Shown: one piece after another, positions 1,160-26,284 of the stretch
Position numbering within the stretch: the stretch's first letter is position 1
Layout of the letters: every line of letters begins with the position of its first letter
Source of the DNA: a virus
UHGV virus genome: UHGV-0192366
Length of the DNA stretch: 35,794 nucleotides
Strand: one strand, 5' to 3'
Made by a program: the position numbers and the translations under genes
The notes under the pieces: generated by a model
What the model was told of the DNA's origin: nothing
Seen by the model: the letters and a program-made list of their open reading frames with translations, nothing else
Databases searched by the model: none

Positions 1160-1207
1160 TACCTTTTACCTCCTATTTTTATTGCCGTCGTAACCTCCGT
1201 GGCGGGA

Positions 1208-1236
1208 TTGCTTTCTTTTTGTTTATCTCCTATACT
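1208..1236 (+). promoter_or_regulatory. sigma-70-like promoter (TTGCTT-17-TATACT) for the plus-strand moron operon
   Basis: Hexamers and 17-nt spacer read directly. About 45 nt upstream of the AAAGGAG RBS of the 1284 ORF. Confidence 0.4.
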
Positions 1237-1283
1237 GTAAATACAGGTGTTGCAGCACCGAGTATTATGAAAGGAGATTTATT

Positions 1284-1661
1284 ATGCTTGACACATTATC
1301 AATCATTGTCAACACTACTGTATCTGTTATTTCTGCAATTATAGACTTCGCAGCCGTCCCATTGTCAGCTGCATCCGTATTTATCTTGGTGGTCGATCGG
1401 CATGAGAAAAAGGAAAGCGAAAAAATGAAACTTATCGTTACTCCCAAAAGGAAATATGCGAATAAGCAAACCGGTATGCTTTACCTTTACCTCAGTTTTT
1501 CCAACGAATCATCACTTCCTATATCTGTATTGGATATGAGACTCATGGCGTGTGATGATTATTCGGATAATTTCACAAAGTATGATGTTGCACAAGGGAC
1601 TGTATCCGTTGAAAGCATGGAAATGATTCCAACCAACAGGAGGGGGGAAACCAATTCCTGA
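1284..1661 (+). CDS. hypothetical membrane protein (N-terminal hydrophobic segments), moron gene 1
   Basis: AAAGGAG RBS 7 nt upstream of ATG. Hydrophobic N-terminus IIVNTTVSVISAIIDFAAVPLSAASVFILVV. Oriented opposite to the early operon. Confidence 0.55.
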   Translation: MLDTLSIIVNTTVSVISAIIDFAAVPLSAASVFILVVDRHEKKESEKMKLIVTPKRKYANKQTGMLYLYLSFSNESSLPISVLDMRLMACDDYSDNFTKYDVAQGTVSVESMEMIPTNRRGETNS

Positions 1662-4280: not shown

Positions 4281-4408
4281 CTACATATCCGAAGATATGC
4301 GATTAAAATCCAAGAATATTGTATCATCTTCGGAGCAGTCATGCAAGTGGAACATCAGTTCGCACGTTGGCTGTTATTTTTATACTTAAATTTAAAGGAG
4401 ATGACGAA

Positions 4409-5515
4409 ATGGCAACAGCAAAGCAGCTGCCCTCCGGTACATGGAGGTGTCTTGTATATAGCCACAAAGAAAAGCTATATGACAGGGAAGGAAAACCAAT
4501 TATCGACGAGAAGACAGGGAAACAGAAGGAAAAGAGAATATACGAATCCTTTACAAGCTCCCTTCCGGGGCGAAAGGGAAAGCAGGATGCAGAAGCGCAG
4601 GCGGCTACATTTCTTGCAGAGCGAGAATTTAAACAGCGCCCGGAAAACCTAAGCATAAGAGAGGCCTTTAAACGGTACATAGCCGCGAAAGAAAATGTGC
4701 TGTCAGAAACCACATTGCGCGGGTATGAGACGATTATGAACAACCAGATTGCAGATATTGCAGAAATCAGTATACGCAAGATCACACCAGAGAATGTGCA
4801 GATGTGGATCAATAATCTATCCGCAAGACTATCGCCAAAAACCGTAAAGAACGCCTATGGACTTTTTATCCCGGTAATGTCTATGTATGCCCCAGATCGG
4901 ACATTTAAAACCACCCTCCCTCAGTCGGAAGAACTAGAGTATTATACTCCATCCGATCAAGATATAGTAAATCTAATAGAGTACATTAAGGGAACAGAAC
5001 TTGAAAAAGCTGTGCTTCTGGCTGCTTTTGGCAGCCTTAGACGCGGAGAAGTGTGCGGACTCGAAAAAGAGGATATAAACGGAAATTCGATTAGAGTCCG
5101 GATTACAAGAGTGCGCGGAAGAAAAGGGATGATCGAGAAGTCACCTAAGACGAAAAAGAGTTACCGATATATTATTTTTCCAGAATTTGTTATACGAAAA
5201 TTTGATGATGTAGAAGGAAAACTTGTTAAGATGCACCCGGAAGATATCTCTAAAAAGTTTGGGCGTATACTGCAAGCGGCAGGGATACCAAAGTTCCGAT
5301 TCCACGATCTCAGACATTATACCGCATCGATCATGCACGCTATCGGGATACCTGACCAGTATATAATGAAGCGTGGCGGTTGGAAATCTGATCGCGTGTT
5401 AAAAAAAGTCTATCGCAACACGATTGATGCAGAAGACAAGAAATTTATCGATAAAGTAAACTCACATTTCGAGAACATGCAACACGAAATGCAACACGTA
5501 GAAAAAGAAGCCTGA
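4409..5515 (+). CDS. int: tyrosine recombinase / phage integrase
   Basis: AAAGGAG RBS, ATG at 4409 (the track start at 4319 is TTG). C-terminal catalytic region HDLRHYTASIM...GGWKSDRVLKKVYRNT is typical of Y-recombinases. N-terminal arm-binding-like SGTWRC. Confidence 0.9.
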   Translation: MATAKQLPSGTWRCLVYSHKEKLYDREGKPIIDEKTGKQKEKRIYESFTSSLPGRKGKQDAEAQAATFLAEREFKQRPENLSIREAFKRYIAAKENVLSETTLRGYETIMNNQIADIAEISIRKITPENVQMWINNLSARLSPKTVKNAYGLFIPVMSMYAPDRTFKTTLPQSEELEYYTPSDQDIVNLIEYIKGTELEKAVLLAAFGSLRRGEVCGLEKEDINGNSIRVRITRVRGRKGMIEKSPKTKKSYRYIIFPEFVIRKFDDVEGKLVKMHPEDISKKFGRILQAAGIPKFRFHDLRHYTASIMHAIGIPDQYIMKRGGWKSDRVLKKVYRNTIDAEDKKFIDKVNSHFENMQHEMQHVEKEA

Positions 5516-5542
5516 ATTTACGCGCATTTTAAGCAAAAATGT

Positions 5543-5567
5543 GAGGGTTCGACTCCCGCCAGGTCCA
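5543..5567 (+). other. attP core candidate: tRNA/tmRNA 3'-end-like segment (T-arm GGTTCGACTCC plus acceptor 3' strand CAGGTCC plus A73)
   Basis: GAGGGTTCGACTCCCGCCAGGTCCA lies immediately 3' of int. No D or anticodon arms upstream, so it is a 3' fragment only. One mismatch in the T-stem. Confidence 0.5.
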
Positions 5568-5572
5568 TGATA

Positions 5573-18922: not shown

Positions 18923-19071
18923 GTTTCTGATCTCCTTTCGCATTAGGTTATTTTTAGGTGTGTAACCATCCACCACGAATTGACTGTTTAAGGTCTCATC
19001 TACTGACCAAAAAGGCATAAAAATAACACATATCTCTATGTGCCAATGTCTTACCTATTCAATTTTTACTC

Positions 19072-23455: not shown

Positions 23456-24782
23456 CTTCCACCTCTTCGATTAGGTATTTCATATCGCGCTCGATTGTAT
23501 ATTCAAATGCATCCAAGCTGTCAATGTCAGTGCTGCCGTCATCCAGACGTTCATCCTTCCCAACAGCTTCTTTGTTCCAGACCGCATCTGAAAAAGCGGT
23601 TTGCAGAGATTCGCAGTCTTTTGTAATAAAAAACCGCCCAGCCCCCATGAGCTTGACGGTGCATCTGATCCTGTCGTTGATTGGTCTTTTCTTTGCTGGT
23701 TTGACAGCGATCCACGGATATTCTTTTTCTACGGCGTTTCGGATGGAATTACCAAGTACTGTCTCCGCATTGTCCCAGAATACGGATTCTACGTTGCAAT
23801 ACTGCACGTAATCACCTCTTTTCACACATACCGAATATTGTTCTATTACTTCTCTGATAAATTCGCAAAACAACTCATTCAACCTATTGCTGTCGATGTC
23901 TTCTTTTTCATCTTTCGCCGTGATTCTACGTGATTTTAGCGCAATTACATCTCTGTAATTATCCGTATACCCTCTGGCAACGAACGAGTGACCAGATTGA
24001 TTACCACCGAAGTCCAAACCGATCTCGATTGATGTGATATCCTCTTTTCGGAATTGCTTATACTCTGATTCCTGCGAGATATTATCCACGATTTCGCACC
24101 GGAACGCTTCTGGATTGTCTGCAAACCGCTTGTAAATCGATCCGTCAGCTCTTTTCCATAGGCCAAGAATGAGACGGTCATAGTAGATTGTCCCCTCGTA
24201 CTCTTTGCAGAGATCCTCAACAAATCCAGGATTTAGAAATGGATTATCAAATATGGTGTACTTTTGTAGATATATATCTAGCTCCACATTGTCTATAAAC
24301 TCTTTCAACCAATGTGTGGGGTGTTCCGGGTTACAAGCCCCATCAAAGCAGGAATACGGTTTATCAAGACGGGATTTTAACATCTGGAAGACTTCTTTGT
24401 TCCATTTCGCAATCTCATCCCCGTAACAATATTTGATGGATGCTCCCTGTATCTTCGCAACCTGGCTGACCTTTTCTGCGCCGAGACAATAGACATCCTC
24501 GCCGCATACTCTAGCCACATTCCGGTTATTGATGTTCCCGATCAGGTCGCTGGTATAGATTTCTCTCATCGGTTGCAGGACATTTCGTTCTATGGATTCT
24601 TTCGAGACTCCCATGATTACATTTAATCCTGGCTTTCCTGCTCTTTCCCGGATTCTATGCGGTACGATATAAGCAGTATCGACAAAAGACTTTCCAGAAC
24701 GCACCGCTCCAGACTTGATATTCCATCTGTGCGTTGCGTTAATTATGTACTCATTTTGTTTCTGGCTTAGCTGCATTGTCAT
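23448..24782 (-). CDS. terL: terminase large subunit (PBSX family)
   Basis: N-terminal Walker-A-like AVRSGKS, conserved ATPase and nuclease regions, 444 aa. Overlaps terS. Confidence 0.85.
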   Translation of the reverse strand: MTMQLSQKQNEYIINATHRWNIKSGAVRSGKSFVDTAYIVPHRIRERAGKPGLNVIMGVSKESIERNVLQPMREIYTSDLIGNINNRNVARVCGEDVYCLGAEKVSQVAKIQGASIKYCYGDEIAKWNKEVFQMLKSRLDKPYSCFDGACNPEHPTHWLKEFIDNVELDIYLQKYTIFDNPFLNPGFVEDLCKEYEGTIYYDRLILGLWKRADGSIYKRFADNPEAFRCEIVDNISQESEYKQFRKEDITSIEIGLDFGGNQSGHSFVARGYTDNYRDVIALKSRRITAKDEKEDIDSNRLNELFCEFIREVIEQYSVCVKRGDYVQYCNVESVFWDNAETVLGNSIRNAVEKEYPWIAVKPAKKRPINDRIRCTVKLMGAGRFFITKDCESLQTAFSDAVWNKEAVGKDERLDDGSTDIDSLDAFEYTIERDMKYLIEEVEDV

Positions 24783-25218
24783 GCAATCCTTTCAAGATTT
24801 CATCCAGCTTCTCAATCGCTGTCCTATCTTCATATTCCTGCTTATCTCTCCACTTGTCCGGTTTCCGGTTCTTCAACCAGAAGATCTGGGCTGTAGTGTC
24901 CGGCGCTACTTGCTTTGTGACCTTTTTCGTAGTTTTCATTTCATCGAATTCCGGTATATATTCTCTGGTCGTTTCCGTGTACTCATATCCAAGCGCACGT
25001 TTTAGCAAAGCATTCTCGACTTGACGATCAACGACCTCTTTTCCTCTTTTTAGGGTGTCCGAAATGTCCGAATACTTGTCTTTCCAGCTATTTAATGTGC
25101 TTCTGGAAATCCCGATATTATCTGCAATCTGCTCATCTGTCAAGCCATCTCTCGCCCATCCCTCTATCTTCAGCAAGCCTTCCGGCTCTAGCCACTCTTG
25201 ATATTTACCTTTTGCCAT
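24751..25218 (-). CDS. terS: terminase small subunit (P27/Terminase_4 family)
   Basis: MAKGKYQEWLEPEGLLKIEGWARDGLTDEQIADNIGISRSTLNSW (HTH). ATG ~25218 with a GGTGGTGAG RBS (the track start at 25230 is GTG). Confidence 0.75.
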   Translation of the reverse strand: MAKGKYQEWLEPEGLLKIEGWARDGLTDEQIADNIGISRSTLNSWKDKYSDISDTLKRGKEVVDRQVENALLKRALGYEYTETTREYIPEFDEMKTTKKVTKQVAPDTTAQIFWLKNRKPDKWRDKQEYEDRTAIEKLDEILKGLHDNAAKPETK

Positions 25219-25276
25219 CCGACTCACCACCTTTATAGCATAATAAAAGCACCCATCTCTGGATGCTAAGAATTTA

Positions 25277-25377
25277 GGACTACTGCAAAATAAGAATTAA
25301 TAACGCCAACAAAAACCAAAATAACCAAATACACAATCAAAATTTATAAGAAAAAAGGAGGAACCTTGCAGTAGTCC
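25277..25377. repeat. 12-bp perfect inverted repeat GGACTACTGCAA / TTGCAGTAGTCC flanking a 77-nt A-rich spacer between tRNA-Asn and terS
   Basis: Arms at ~25277-25288 and ~25366-25377. Confidence 0.5.
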
Positions 25378-25381
25378 ACAA

Positions 25382-25454
25382 CGGGTATAGCAGGATTCGA
25401 ACCTGCGACAAATCGGTTAACAGCCGATCGCTCTACCAACTGAGCTATACACCC
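25382..25454 (-). tRNA. tRNA-Asn (anticodon GTT), phage-encoded
   Basis: Canonical cloverleaf read manually: acceptor GGGTGTA/TATACCC, D-arm GCTCAGTTGGTAGAGC, anticodon stem-loop ATCGG-CTGTTAA-CCGAT, T-arm GCAGGTTCGAATCCTGC. CCA not encoded. Confidence 0.8.
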
Positions 25455-25648
25455 GTAGGATGCCTTTTATTGACATCCTTAACCCTATCCGCACTCGGGT
25501 ACTGACACTAAATATAGATTGCTGAATCTATTTTTGTTTGTTTCGCAGATCTGCGGATATCTGCGTTTTGGTACCATTTGTGATGTAAGTCCGGTGTGCA
25601 CTCCCAGAACAGACCTCAGCTGTGCAGCCTGTATACTCACATCACAAA

Positions 25649-25720
25649 GCGGAGCACTTGGAATCGAACCAAGGACACAGGGCGCGACCCTGCGCGTCTA
25701 CCACTGATGCTATACTCCGC
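25649..25720 (-). ncRNA. non-canonical tRNA-like gene (perfect acceptor, D and T arms; anticodon arm CAGGG-TCGCG-CCCTG with a 5-nt loop)
   Basis: GCGGAGTATAGCATCAGTGGTAGACGCGCAGGGTCGCGCCCTGTGTCCTTGGTTCGATTCCAAGTGCTCCGC. T-arm CTTGGTTCGATTCCAAG and acceptor pairing are intact. The anticodon loop is too short. Possible G-1:C73. Confidence 0.5.
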
Positions 25721-25867
25721 ATAAAAACACCGCCAGACAAGAAAGGGTAGAAGTCTGACGGTGTTCCGAATGTTCGGAAAGAAAGTTAATTGCTAGAACT
25801 TAACTTTTAACTCCATGTTATACTATAAACTCCTAAAAGCGAAAAATGTGAAAAAAACGAAATAACT

Positions 25868-26284
25868 TTATTTTTCTTTCATCCAATTCTGAAATTCCAT
25901 TCTTACACTGTCTTTTGTGCATCTCCCTCCCATTTTTATCGCTACAGAGTCCCATGTCAGTCCTTGCATCACCTTGAACCGGATAATCCTCTGTATCCTT
26001 ACCGGAGCTTTATTGATTACTCGCTCTGCTTTTACTTTAATCCGCTTTGCGTTCAGCTTTCGTTCTTCCAACAACCGTTCCTCTTCGTCTATATTCACCG
26101 TGTTCTCTATACATCCAGAGATATTAAAGCTCTGCGGTTGGTACGGAAACTCTGGATTGCTGCCTGTCACTTTATCCTGAACAAACGTCTTTCTTCTGTG
26201 CCGTCTGATATCTTCCTCTGTCTCTTTCACAAGCGCTTTCGCATCCATGTACTCATAGATTATATTCTTATCCACCTCAATCAC
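25868..26284 (-). CDS. ArpU/RinA-like late-gene transcriptional activator (putative)
   Basis: ~135 aa gene just upstream of terS and the tRNAs. C-terminal region-4-like HTH VMQGLTWDSVAIKMG. Likely GTG start ~26275 after GGGAGGTG. Confidence 0.4.
   Translation of the reverse strand: MIEVDKNIIYEYMDAKALVKETEEDIRRHRRKTFVQDKVTGSNPEFPYQPQSFNISGCIENTVNIDEEERLLEERKLNAKRIKVKAERVINKAPVRIQRIIRFKVMQGLTWDSVAIKMGGRCTKDSVRMEFQNWMKEK

Follow-up and report, generated by a model that had tools for sequence, protein, structure and literature searches.

The 35,794-nt viral genome UHGV-0192366, which we refer to as the window, carries at the head of its late operon a 73-nt element (25648–25720, minus strand) that comparison with related phages identifies as a conserved, non-decoding tRNA-like RNA whose anticodon arm is dispensable. 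We tentatively propose that this element is a punctuation signal resembling the t-elements of plant mitochondria, cut by RNase P and RNase Z within the late leader, a reading that we favor among those considered below and judge to fall somewhat short of probable. The window comes from a temperate siphophage of Ruminococcus (Mediterraneibacter) gnavus and is 83–94% identical across this region to the phages phiRg507T2_2, phiRgIBDN1, RG-TP1, phiRM10, and others. Along the minus strand, the order is a RinA-family gene, a promoter-like stretch, a leader that ends in a terminator-like hairpin (T1), 2 nt, the element, a second hairpin (hairpin X), a spacer, a canonical tRNA-Asn, and the small terminase gene terS (Table 1).

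Table 1 Features of the late-operon head in the window, in minus-strand order
Feature	Position	Strand	Basis and remarks
RinA-family late regulator gene	25868–26284	−	tblastn, 85–94% identity to "RinA family transcriptional activator" proteins of R. gnavus phages
Promoter-like stretch after the RinA-like gene	25811–25863	−	TTTC[G/A] in three direct repeats spaced by about 10 nt (25839–25863), then TATAGTATAAC
T1, intrinsic-terminator-like hairpin	25723–25764	−	ACACCGUCAGAC, 14-nt C/U-rich loop, GUCUGGCGGUGU, U tract; read from sequence
tRNA-like element, class L	25648–25720	−	ARAGORN, fold, covariance model R2, 13 class L variants
Element, acceptor 5′ strand	25720–25713	−	
Element, D arm	25710–25694	−	
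Element, anticodon-like hairpin	25693–25677	−	5-nt loop UCGCG at 25687–25683
Element, T arm	25673–25657	−	CUUGG-UUCGAUU-CCAAG
Element, acceptor 3′ strand	25656–25649	−	unpaired U73 at 25648
Hairpin X, about 70 nt	25578–25647	−	fold; starts directly after U73
Spacer core	25456–25577	−	alignment; 126 sequences tabulated
Canonical tRNA-Asn(GUU)	25381–25455	−	ARAGORN; Rfam tRNA, 75 bits
Small terminase gene (terS), first late protein gene downstream of the module	24751–25230	−	Pfam HTH_23, GP3_package; annotated terminase small subunit in RG-TP1

Structure of the tRNA-like element

ARAGORN calls two genes in the window, tRNA-Asn(gtt) at 25381–25455 and, 192 nt upstream of it, the element, which it labels "tRNA-Ala(cgc)". 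A preliminary description of the window had noted a tRNA-like feature beside a canonical tRNA-Asn, and both the ARAGORN calls and the Rfam score of the tRNA-Asn bear this out, on the minus strand. The RNA-sense sequence of the element, GCGGAGUAUAGCAUCAGUGGUAGACGCGCAGGGUCGCGCCCUGUGUCCUUGGUUCGAUUCCAAGUGCUCCGC-U, folds with a z-score of −2.85 relative to shuffled sequences, 1 of 200 shuffles being equally good. Its acceptor helix consists of eight contiguous pairs (G1–C72 to A8–U65), which together with the T stem gives 13 bp in place of 12, and its D stem has 5 bp in place of 3–4. In the window variant the D stem contains an A·C mismatch (25708/25696) at a position that forms an A–U pair in 9 of the 13 variants of its class. 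The anticodon-like arm, CAGGG-UCGCG-CCCUG, has a loop of 5 nt, and its stem can be extended to 6–7 pairs (G28·U44, U34·G38), leaving 3–5 nt in the loop. The preliminary description had given the sequences of this arm and of the T arm exactly as we find them and had taken every arm except the anticodon arm to be canonical, which holds for the T arm and fails for the acceptor helix and the D stem. It had also stated that a 7-nt loop could form only if the closing G:C pair opened, and we find that this pair has an ensemble probability of 0.99 and costs about 3.2 kcal/mol to open.

Covariance-model scoring, a check suggested in the same description, does not return the element as a tRNA. The gathering score of the Rfam tRNA model RF00005 (29 bits) is not reached, and the best match within the clan is tRNA-Sec (RF01852), with 24.8 bits against a threshold of 47 in a permissive 351-nt Rfam search (E ≤ 10). 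This weak match arises because the acceptor/T branch of the long forms is 8/5, or 13 bp; of the traits of tRNA-Sec, the element has no UCA anticodon, no long variable arm (0 of 18 variable-arm positions aligned), and no 6-bp D stem with a 4-nt loop. Apart from this sub-threshold match, Rfam searches of the window, of an S1 locus, and of the variant LC (see below), at gathering and at permissive E-values, matched the element to no family, and our literature search found no paper describing it. Covariance model R2 finds a single copy in the window, at 101.9 bits, and when two covariance models were used to look for further copies there, the sole extra match was a T-arm-like fragment beside the integrase gene.

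Four classes of the element occupy one slot

We compared 178 sequences, found in IMG/VR by exact-pattern scans with three different anchors (T1, the 5′ part of the element, and the conserved spacer) or taken from GenBank phages and one metagenome-assembled genome; all of them belong to one closely related, recombining phage group. Each contains one element in the slot, and a canonical tRNA occupies it in 0 of 178. The preliminary description had raised recent decay of a phage tRNA, with a normal tRNA in relatives as its sign; the relatives instead all have the same odd form or a more reduced one. A search for more distant relatives anchored on RinA (genome_contigs) returned two loci, one with an S1 element (see below) and the other (L130, RinA 65% identical) with the promoter, leader, and terminator and no tRNA-like element. 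A tblastn search against cultured phages for more distant relatives gave the same 7 records only.

The elements fall into four structural classes. Class L, to which the window belongs, comprises 64 sequences in 13 variants of 70–72 nt. The others are shorter, namely S1 (65 sequences, 44 nt), S2 (33 sequences, 45 nt), and S3 (16 sequences, 39 nt), and none of them has an anticodon arm, which is thus absent in 114 of 178 sequences. In the S forms, a 6-bp acceptor helix is followed by a linker of 9–15 nt, in which GG is invariant, and by a 5-bp T stem capped by a GGUUCRA loop, and a single unpaired purine separates the T stem from the 3′ acceptor strand; the D arm is reduced to a mini-helix of 2–3 bp in S1 and S2 and is absent in S3. 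Across the whole family, the GG linker, the T loop, U(−1), G1, and U73 are near-invariant. ARAGORN, which covers tmRNA as well as tRNA genes, calls no S element and no tmRNA at S-type loci, and an Rfam search of the S1 region of locus L002 at E ≤ 10, tmRNA families included, has no tmRNA match and no match over the element.

Within class L, the anticodon-like hairpin is the variable part. The window's hairpin, with its 5-nt loop, is the commonest form. Another form, GCGG-GGUAUCG-CCGC, has a 7-nt loop without U33, and a variant that we call LC has CAGG-GUCGCGA-CCUG, with a true 7-nt loop and a branch of 9 + 4 pairs. Lesions of this arm include a stem mismatch (L133) and deletions of 1–2 nt (L148, L059/L146).

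These comparisons bear directly on the existing annotation. GenBank labels the element tRNA-Ala in four cultured phages, and the L element is so labeled in MT980836–MT980840. In favor of a genuine decoding tRNA-Ala(CGC), the ARAGORN call agrees with this label, and opening the closing G:C pair would present the loop G-U-CGC-G-C with U33 and G37, while LC has its 7-nt loop outright. We nevertheless regard such a tRNA as scarcely credible. The element scores below the Rfam tRNA threshold, and even LC, the most tRNA-like variant, has no Rfam tRNA match at E ≤ 1; G3 pairs with C70 in 13 of 13 L variants, in place of the alanine identity pair with U70; the 13-bp acceptor and T branch, the 5-bp D stem, and G32 are foreign to such a tRNA; and other L variants have the GGUAUCG loop, without U33, or lesions, several of them drawing no ARAGORN call. 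Moreover, the 114 phages without an anticodon arm manage without it. Codon supplementation was rejected as well, GCG being an ordinary codon in the window (13.1 per 1000) and the arm being missing in most phages.

In papers on R. gnavus phages, tRNAs are given only as ARAGORN or tRNAscan lists. In RG-TP1 (PQ571303.1; L002 1943–2086), a 47-aa "hypothetical protein" coding sequence, probably a spurious gene call, is laid across the terminator hairpin and the S1 element. Since GenBank lists the element as tRNA-Ala, while its reduced forms either have no annotation or lie under a hypothetical coding sequence, phage tRNA counts, and the codon-supplementation arguments built on them, are wrong for this group.

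A tRNA that is charged and then used outside of decoding is, in our view, distinctly improbable. The 8-bp stem allows two equally good readings of its first pair, G−1:C73 and G1:C72 with U73, so that an L form might be aminoacylated in the manner of tRNA-His, through G−1:C73, or in that of tRNA-Gly, through G1:C72, C2:G71, and G3:C70 with U73. Irregular G−1 tRNAs have been reported that are maybe charged and not used for translation (PMC5389517). The S classes share neither identity set, since they lack G−1:C73, begin with G1·U72 or G1–C72, and have C3:G70 or U3·G70 as the third pair of a 6-bp stem. Neither an NCC anticodon nor GUG, the tRNA-His type, occurs, GUG being absent from every L variant, and no transferase or other user gene is evident. 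A possible likeness of the L acceptor end and D loop to tRNA-Gly of Firmicutes serves only as a lead.

The stems show signs of selection on an RNA fold

Pairing in the stems is nearly complete despite sequence change. In the L alignment, 97.4% of cells are in standard pairs and three pairs have changed on both sides; in the combined S1 and S2 alignment, the values are 99.1% and 5 of 13 pairs, including both mini-helix pairs; and in the alignment of all S forms, they are 98.5% and 5 of 11 pairs. Controls in which the partner strand of the all-S alignment was slid gave 28–52% pairing. Intermediate steps can also be followed, as a series U–A, U·G, C–G in the T stem of class L and as C–G, U·G, U–A together with G–C/A–U in the acceptor stem of the S forms, and the L anticodon-like hairpin has one compensatory change, from A30–U42 to G–C. 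The T-arm sequence GGUUCRA is invariant or near-invariant. The numbers of sequences overstate the independent events, because the phages are closely related and recombine. The compensatory pair changes point to selection on an RNA fold and not on a DNA site. Judged by the alignments, selection keeps the acceptor helix and the T arm together with a GG linker, which resembles a D loop and can form an elbow, and the end nucleotides, with the decoding parts unconstrained.

A functionless relic, a captured tRNA gene in decay whose apparent conservation only reflects close kinship, would account for the lesions, namely the D-stem A·C mismatch of the window variant and the mismatches and deletions in the anticodon-like arm elsewhere, and the restriction of the dataset to one recombining group suits it too. 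It is improbable in our view, since four very different classes keep the acceptor and T stems paired through the double changes just described, and since the flanks (terminators, hairpin X, cargo tRNA, regulator gene, and morons) are swapped freely while the slot is never empty and the T arm never lost. The S forms are, in addition, too reduced and too uniform for random decay. The compensatory changes, together with the uniformly odd or reduced forms in relatives, likewise argue against the recent decay suggested in the preliminary description.

Placement and end nucleotides fit a processing signal

Bacterial RNase P prefers U at position −1 and G at position +1. In the family, 168 of 178 sequences have U at N(−1), and all 178 have G at position 1. 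At the 3′ end, 177 of 178 have U as the first unpaired base beyond the acceptor stem, 169 of 178 have U at the position that follows, and none (0 of 178) encodes CCA. In Firmicutes, RNase Z cuts precursors that lack CCA directly 3′ of the discriminator (PMC8549757). By their sequence, then, the end nucleotides of the element (U−1, G1, U73, U74, and no CCA) fit tRNA processing.

The element also lies consistently at the borders of RNA units. A terminator-like hairpin with a U tract precedes it by 2–8 nt in every case, although the hairpin itself differs, with at least five unrelated hairpins found at that position: T1, the terminator of a HicA/HicB cassette, two that precede S3, and one after a different inserted gene. 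T1 is kept in most relatives, and in the window its end is separated from G1 by 2 nt (AU). On the other side, 68 of 69 distinct downstream sequences have a helix of at least 6 bp, part of a hairpin of 41–71 nt, that begins 0–4 nt beyond U73, compared with 12% at random positions of the same loci. Because no room is left for a promoter between the terminator and G1, the element would be transcribed by polymerase that passes the upstream terminator, and a sigma-70 scan called no promoter for it.

The conserved placement and the end nucleotides make a processing signal the best-fitting reading, and the constrained parts are those read by RNase P, RNase Z, and the CCA-adding enzyme, which is why we arrive at a punctuation signal. 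We hypothesize that RNA polymerase reads through the terminator hairpin just upstream and transcribes the element as part of a long untranslated leader, which separates the late regulator gene from terS. Its RNA would fold into a mini-L shape, host RNase P would cut at its 5′ end, and RNase Z would cut after U73. The upstream RNA would then end in the terminator hairpin, exactly as a terminated transcript does, and the downstream RNA would begin 0–4 nt from the base of hairpin X with a structured, exonuclease-resistant 5′ end, so that cleavage may have a stabilizing effect. The excised RNA of 39–72 nt could be a by-product or a small stable RNA. The preliminary description had offered a processing or an integration signal as one option; the first half of it agrees with the placement and the end nucleotides, while the second does not, as the integrase gene and a probable attP lie 20 kb away (4319–5570).

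Several points weigh against such a signal. Efficient termination upstream would leave little element RNA unless late transcription is antiterminated, and the promoter is only putative. The canonical tRNA about 190 nt downstream already supplies sites for RNase P and RNase Z, and a second signal needs a reason of its own. The L forms retain a D arm and an anticodon-like hairpin, the latter with its compensatory change, which are superfluous for a bare cutting signal, and the S forms, with only a 6-bp acceptor and a purine–purine mismatch, are at best candidate substrates of the two enzymes. Cleavage by RNase Z may also be impeded, and not helped, by a hairpin that begins at its very site. Finally, a single closely related, recombining group offers a modest number of independent substitutions.

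The surplus of tRNA-like structure in the L forms suits an action in trans better, in which a mini-tRNA made up of acceptor end plus elbow is released, receives CCA, and then binds and titrates a host factor specific for this half of tRNAs. Candidate targets are a defense toxin that cuts or modifies the tRNA 3′ end or acceptor, the CCA-adding enzyme, EF-Tu, SmpB, and a T-box platform. Exactly the acceptor, T-arm, and elbow half is conserved, the anticodon arm being free to vary or vanish, and the four structural classes and the diversity of acceptor sequences could reflect an arms race. The cargo tRNAs nearby (Asn, Lys, Ile, Trp, and Arg) are, moreover, of kinds discussed as counter-defense tRNAs (PMC10264068). 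We consider this mode of action unlikely, if worth keeping in view: its partner is still only hypothetical, the abundance of an RNA that has no promoter of its own and lies behind a terminator is uncertain, a decoy role leaves the strict abutment of hairpins on both sides unexplained, and no protein gene that co-varies with the class came up, although no search was aimed at one. The fuller proposal, that a minimal CCA-tailed mimic of 39–72 nt from the late leader serves in trans as a sponge or decoy, its target being a host factor that reads the acceptor or 3′ end of tRNAs, with the classes as products of an arms race, is in our estimate decidedly unlikely. The preliminary description had likewise suggested a tRNA mimic or decoy. 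That the element is a mimic and not a decoder agrees with the lack of G3:U70 and of a conserved anticodon and with its sub-threshold scores; a decoy for anticodon nucleases is disfavored, since no part of the element is less conserved than the anticodon arm, which is absent in 114 of 178 sequences.

A further possibility is a role at the DNA level, as a recombination joint or landing pad for the exchange of morons and tRNA cargo, or as part of a packaging or integration site. Morons lie between the late-regulator unit and the element, always inserted exactly at the 5′ edge of the latter, and each has its own terminator. They include a HicA/HicB toxin–antitoxin pair confirmed by Pfam and several membrane proteins or proteins of unknown type, and the loci concerned are L046 (8892–9554; also L048, L087, L102, and L108), L154, L160, L166, L167, and L184. 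The flanking modules are mosaic, and a single contig (L111, about 1200–1290, minus strand) switches at the T loop from the 5′ part of an S2 element to the 3′ part of a tRNA-Asn, with about 250 nt deleted, which is either a recombination between the two T loops or an assembly chimera. The compensatory pair changes indicate selection on an RNA fold, the L111 fusion could be a chimera, and the integrase and probable attP are elsewhere; we therefore hold a DNA-level role to be very improbable.

Comparison with known tRNA-like RNAs

The closest documented system, and by analogy the best functional counterpart of the proposed punctuation signal, is that of the t-elements of plant mitochondria, non-canonical or partial cloverleaves with a GGTTCRANYCC T arm and an acceptor-like stem that do not decode, lie where RNA units meet, and give rise to mRNA ends through cleavage by RNase P and RNase Z (PMC1920247). 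The t-elements are excised as small RNAs whose cleavage has been mapped experimentally; the phage element is known here from its sequence. Unlike the organellar t-elements, the phage elements have a fixed place between a terminator hairpin and a long hairpin, and they include very small forms of 39–45 nt.

In modules of the mascRNA/MALAT1 type, RNase P (and RNase Z) is recruited by a tRNA-like fold that forms part of a longer transcript, and the RNA upstream of it retains a structured, protected 3′ end. The proposed phage arrangement would share the tRNA-like fold within a longer transcript and the structured upstream 3′ end; it differs in that the eukaryotic modules belong to a nuclear long non-coding RNA, show no sequence relation, and have a triple helix in place of the terminator hairpin upstream. 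Within phages, the CI RNA of P4 and the C4 RNA of P1 and P7 are small RNAs matured by RNase P from leaders by means of a tRNA-like acceptor helix, and they act as antisense RNAs on nearby targets. In contrast to these, the element has no complementarity of at least 12 nt in the window; the two 11-mers found there are about what chance would give.

The tRNA-like domain of tmRNA resembles S1, S2, and S3 in having an acceptor stem, a T arm, and a D-loop analog without a D stem, and in lacking an anticodon arm. It differs in its G3·U70 pair, its mRNA-like domain, and its pseudoknots, the S elements being contiguous RNAs of 39–45 nt and the window's L form still having D and anticodon-like hairpins. 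Irregular tRNAs and allo-tRNAs, found in phages and bacteria and proposed to be regulatory non-coding RNAs, also depart from the 7/5 acceptor/T geometry (PMC5389517), as does the element with 8/5 and, in one variant, 9/4; their branches, however, have 12 bp (8/4 or 9/3) and their anticodon loops a normal 7 nt, while the element has 13 bp and an arm that is degenerate or missing. Phage tRNAs that evade host anticodon nucleases through altered anticodon loops (PMC10264068) are likewise phage-borne with unusual loops, and the element resembles them in this and in lying among cargo tRNAs. Unlike the element, whose arm is unconserved and often absent, they are still functional decoders with 7-nt loops and conserved anticodons.

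Non-decoding tRNA-like elements that serve in processing or mimicry are thus already known, and what is new here is best seen as the bacteriophage setting, the unusually small forms, and the fixed architecture. If the element is indeed a punctuation signal, then its fixed position between a terminator and a hairpin at the late-operon head of a prevalent gut-phage group would make it a bacterial-virus counterpart of the organellar t-elements, and would show how late phage RNAs are shaped with the help of the host's RNase P and RNase Z. An action in trans would instead make it a new kind of tRNA mimic and, in a counter-defense role, a new class of RNA-based counter-defense, distinct from the decoder tRNAs of phages. 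The 39-nt S3 form is a candidate natural minimal substrate for tRNA-end enzymes and a compact natural analog of the tRNA-based processing cassettes of synthetic biology.

Upstream promoter-like stretch, leader, and late regulator

Just after the late-regulator gene, direct repeats precede a TATAnTATAA box. Related loci (L001–L008) have a matching layout with TTGTCC repeats, and the layout persists in L130. We infer that this stretch is likely a late promoter, dependent on the regulator and lying upstream of the leader and T1; the sigma-70 scan did not call it. The RinA-like protein itself has no Pfam match, and in relatives the late regulator is of several unrelated types, RinA-like, containing Sigma70_r4, and others.

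The leader, which runs from TATAGTATAAC to the element (25723–25825, minus strand), contains three hairpins and folds with a z-score of −4.8. The last of these, T1, was not called by a terminator scan, because its loop exceeds the 8-nt limit of the tool. The T1 loop, CCCUUUCU (14 nt, C/U-rich), is conserved and shows a weak, sub-threshold resemblance to small RNAs of the LhrC type. In Rfam this LhrC/Hrs12-like resemblance lies far below threshold; as a candidate identity for the element it was rejected, since it belongs to the upstream hairpin. The leader with T1 may act as an independent small RNA or serve in antitermination. The late genes lie behind at least one terminator, which suggests that they are under processive antitermination.

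Downstream hairpin, spacer, and cargo tRNA

Across some 170 loci, hairpin X occurs in several forms that are distinct in sequence and all have a long closing stem. The two commonest forms show compensatory differences in this stem and share an internal GGGAGUGCAC motif. Hairpin X has no match in Rfam.

Of all non-coding stretches in the region, the spacer core is the most conserved, and it is kept even where the late-regulator families differ. It contains direct and inverted repeats, GCAGAU-AUCC-GCAGAU-CUGC and UAGAUUCAGCAAUCUA, and reads in order GCAGAUAUCCGCAGAUCUGC, an A-rich run, UAGAUUCAGCAAUCUA, and, further on, the hairpin GGAUGUC..GGCAUCC (25478–25458), which ends the spacer 3 nt before the tRNA-Asn. 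The spacer as a whole folds with a z-score of −3.55. It could hold an excised non-coding RNA, an activator-dependent promoter (TATATT without a −35 box), or a packaging site.

The canonical tRNA downstream varies, being Asn-GUU in most sequences and otherwise Ile-UAU, Lys-UUU, or Trp-CCA; Arg-CCU is a second tRNA gene in two loci, and phages of the S3 type almost always have Trp-CCA. It too is bracketed by hairpins. As judged from the alignments, the constant parts of the module are the element, its hairpin sandwich, and the spacer core, and the decoder tRNA is exchangeable cargo. In the window, a long-range stem of 12 bp, GGACUACUGCAA/UUGCAGUAGUCC (25366–25377 with 25277–25288, minus strand), begins 4 nt beyond the tRNA-Asn and has about 80 nt between its strands, and a terminator-like hairpin (25248–25267, minus strand) lies immediately before the ribosome-binding site of terS. 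Looking up the exact TerS protein yielded metagenomic contigs alone, which offered no usable information on transcript ends.

Other features of the window

A tyrosine-integrase open reading frame (4319–5515, Pfam Phage_integrase) lies directly before GTGAGGGTTCGACTCCCGCCAGGTCCA (5541–5570, plus strand), which resembles part of a tRNA or tmRNA, namely its T arm and 3′ acceptor strand. By its sequence and position, GTGAGGGTTCGACTCCCGCCAGGTCCA is a probable attP core, which would direct integration into a host gene of the tRNA type. In the structural gene region, a GP20-b RNA motif (RF03003), a known phage cis-regulatory motif, is found at 18944–19008 on the minus strand, with 48.6 bits against a gathering score of 36.2.

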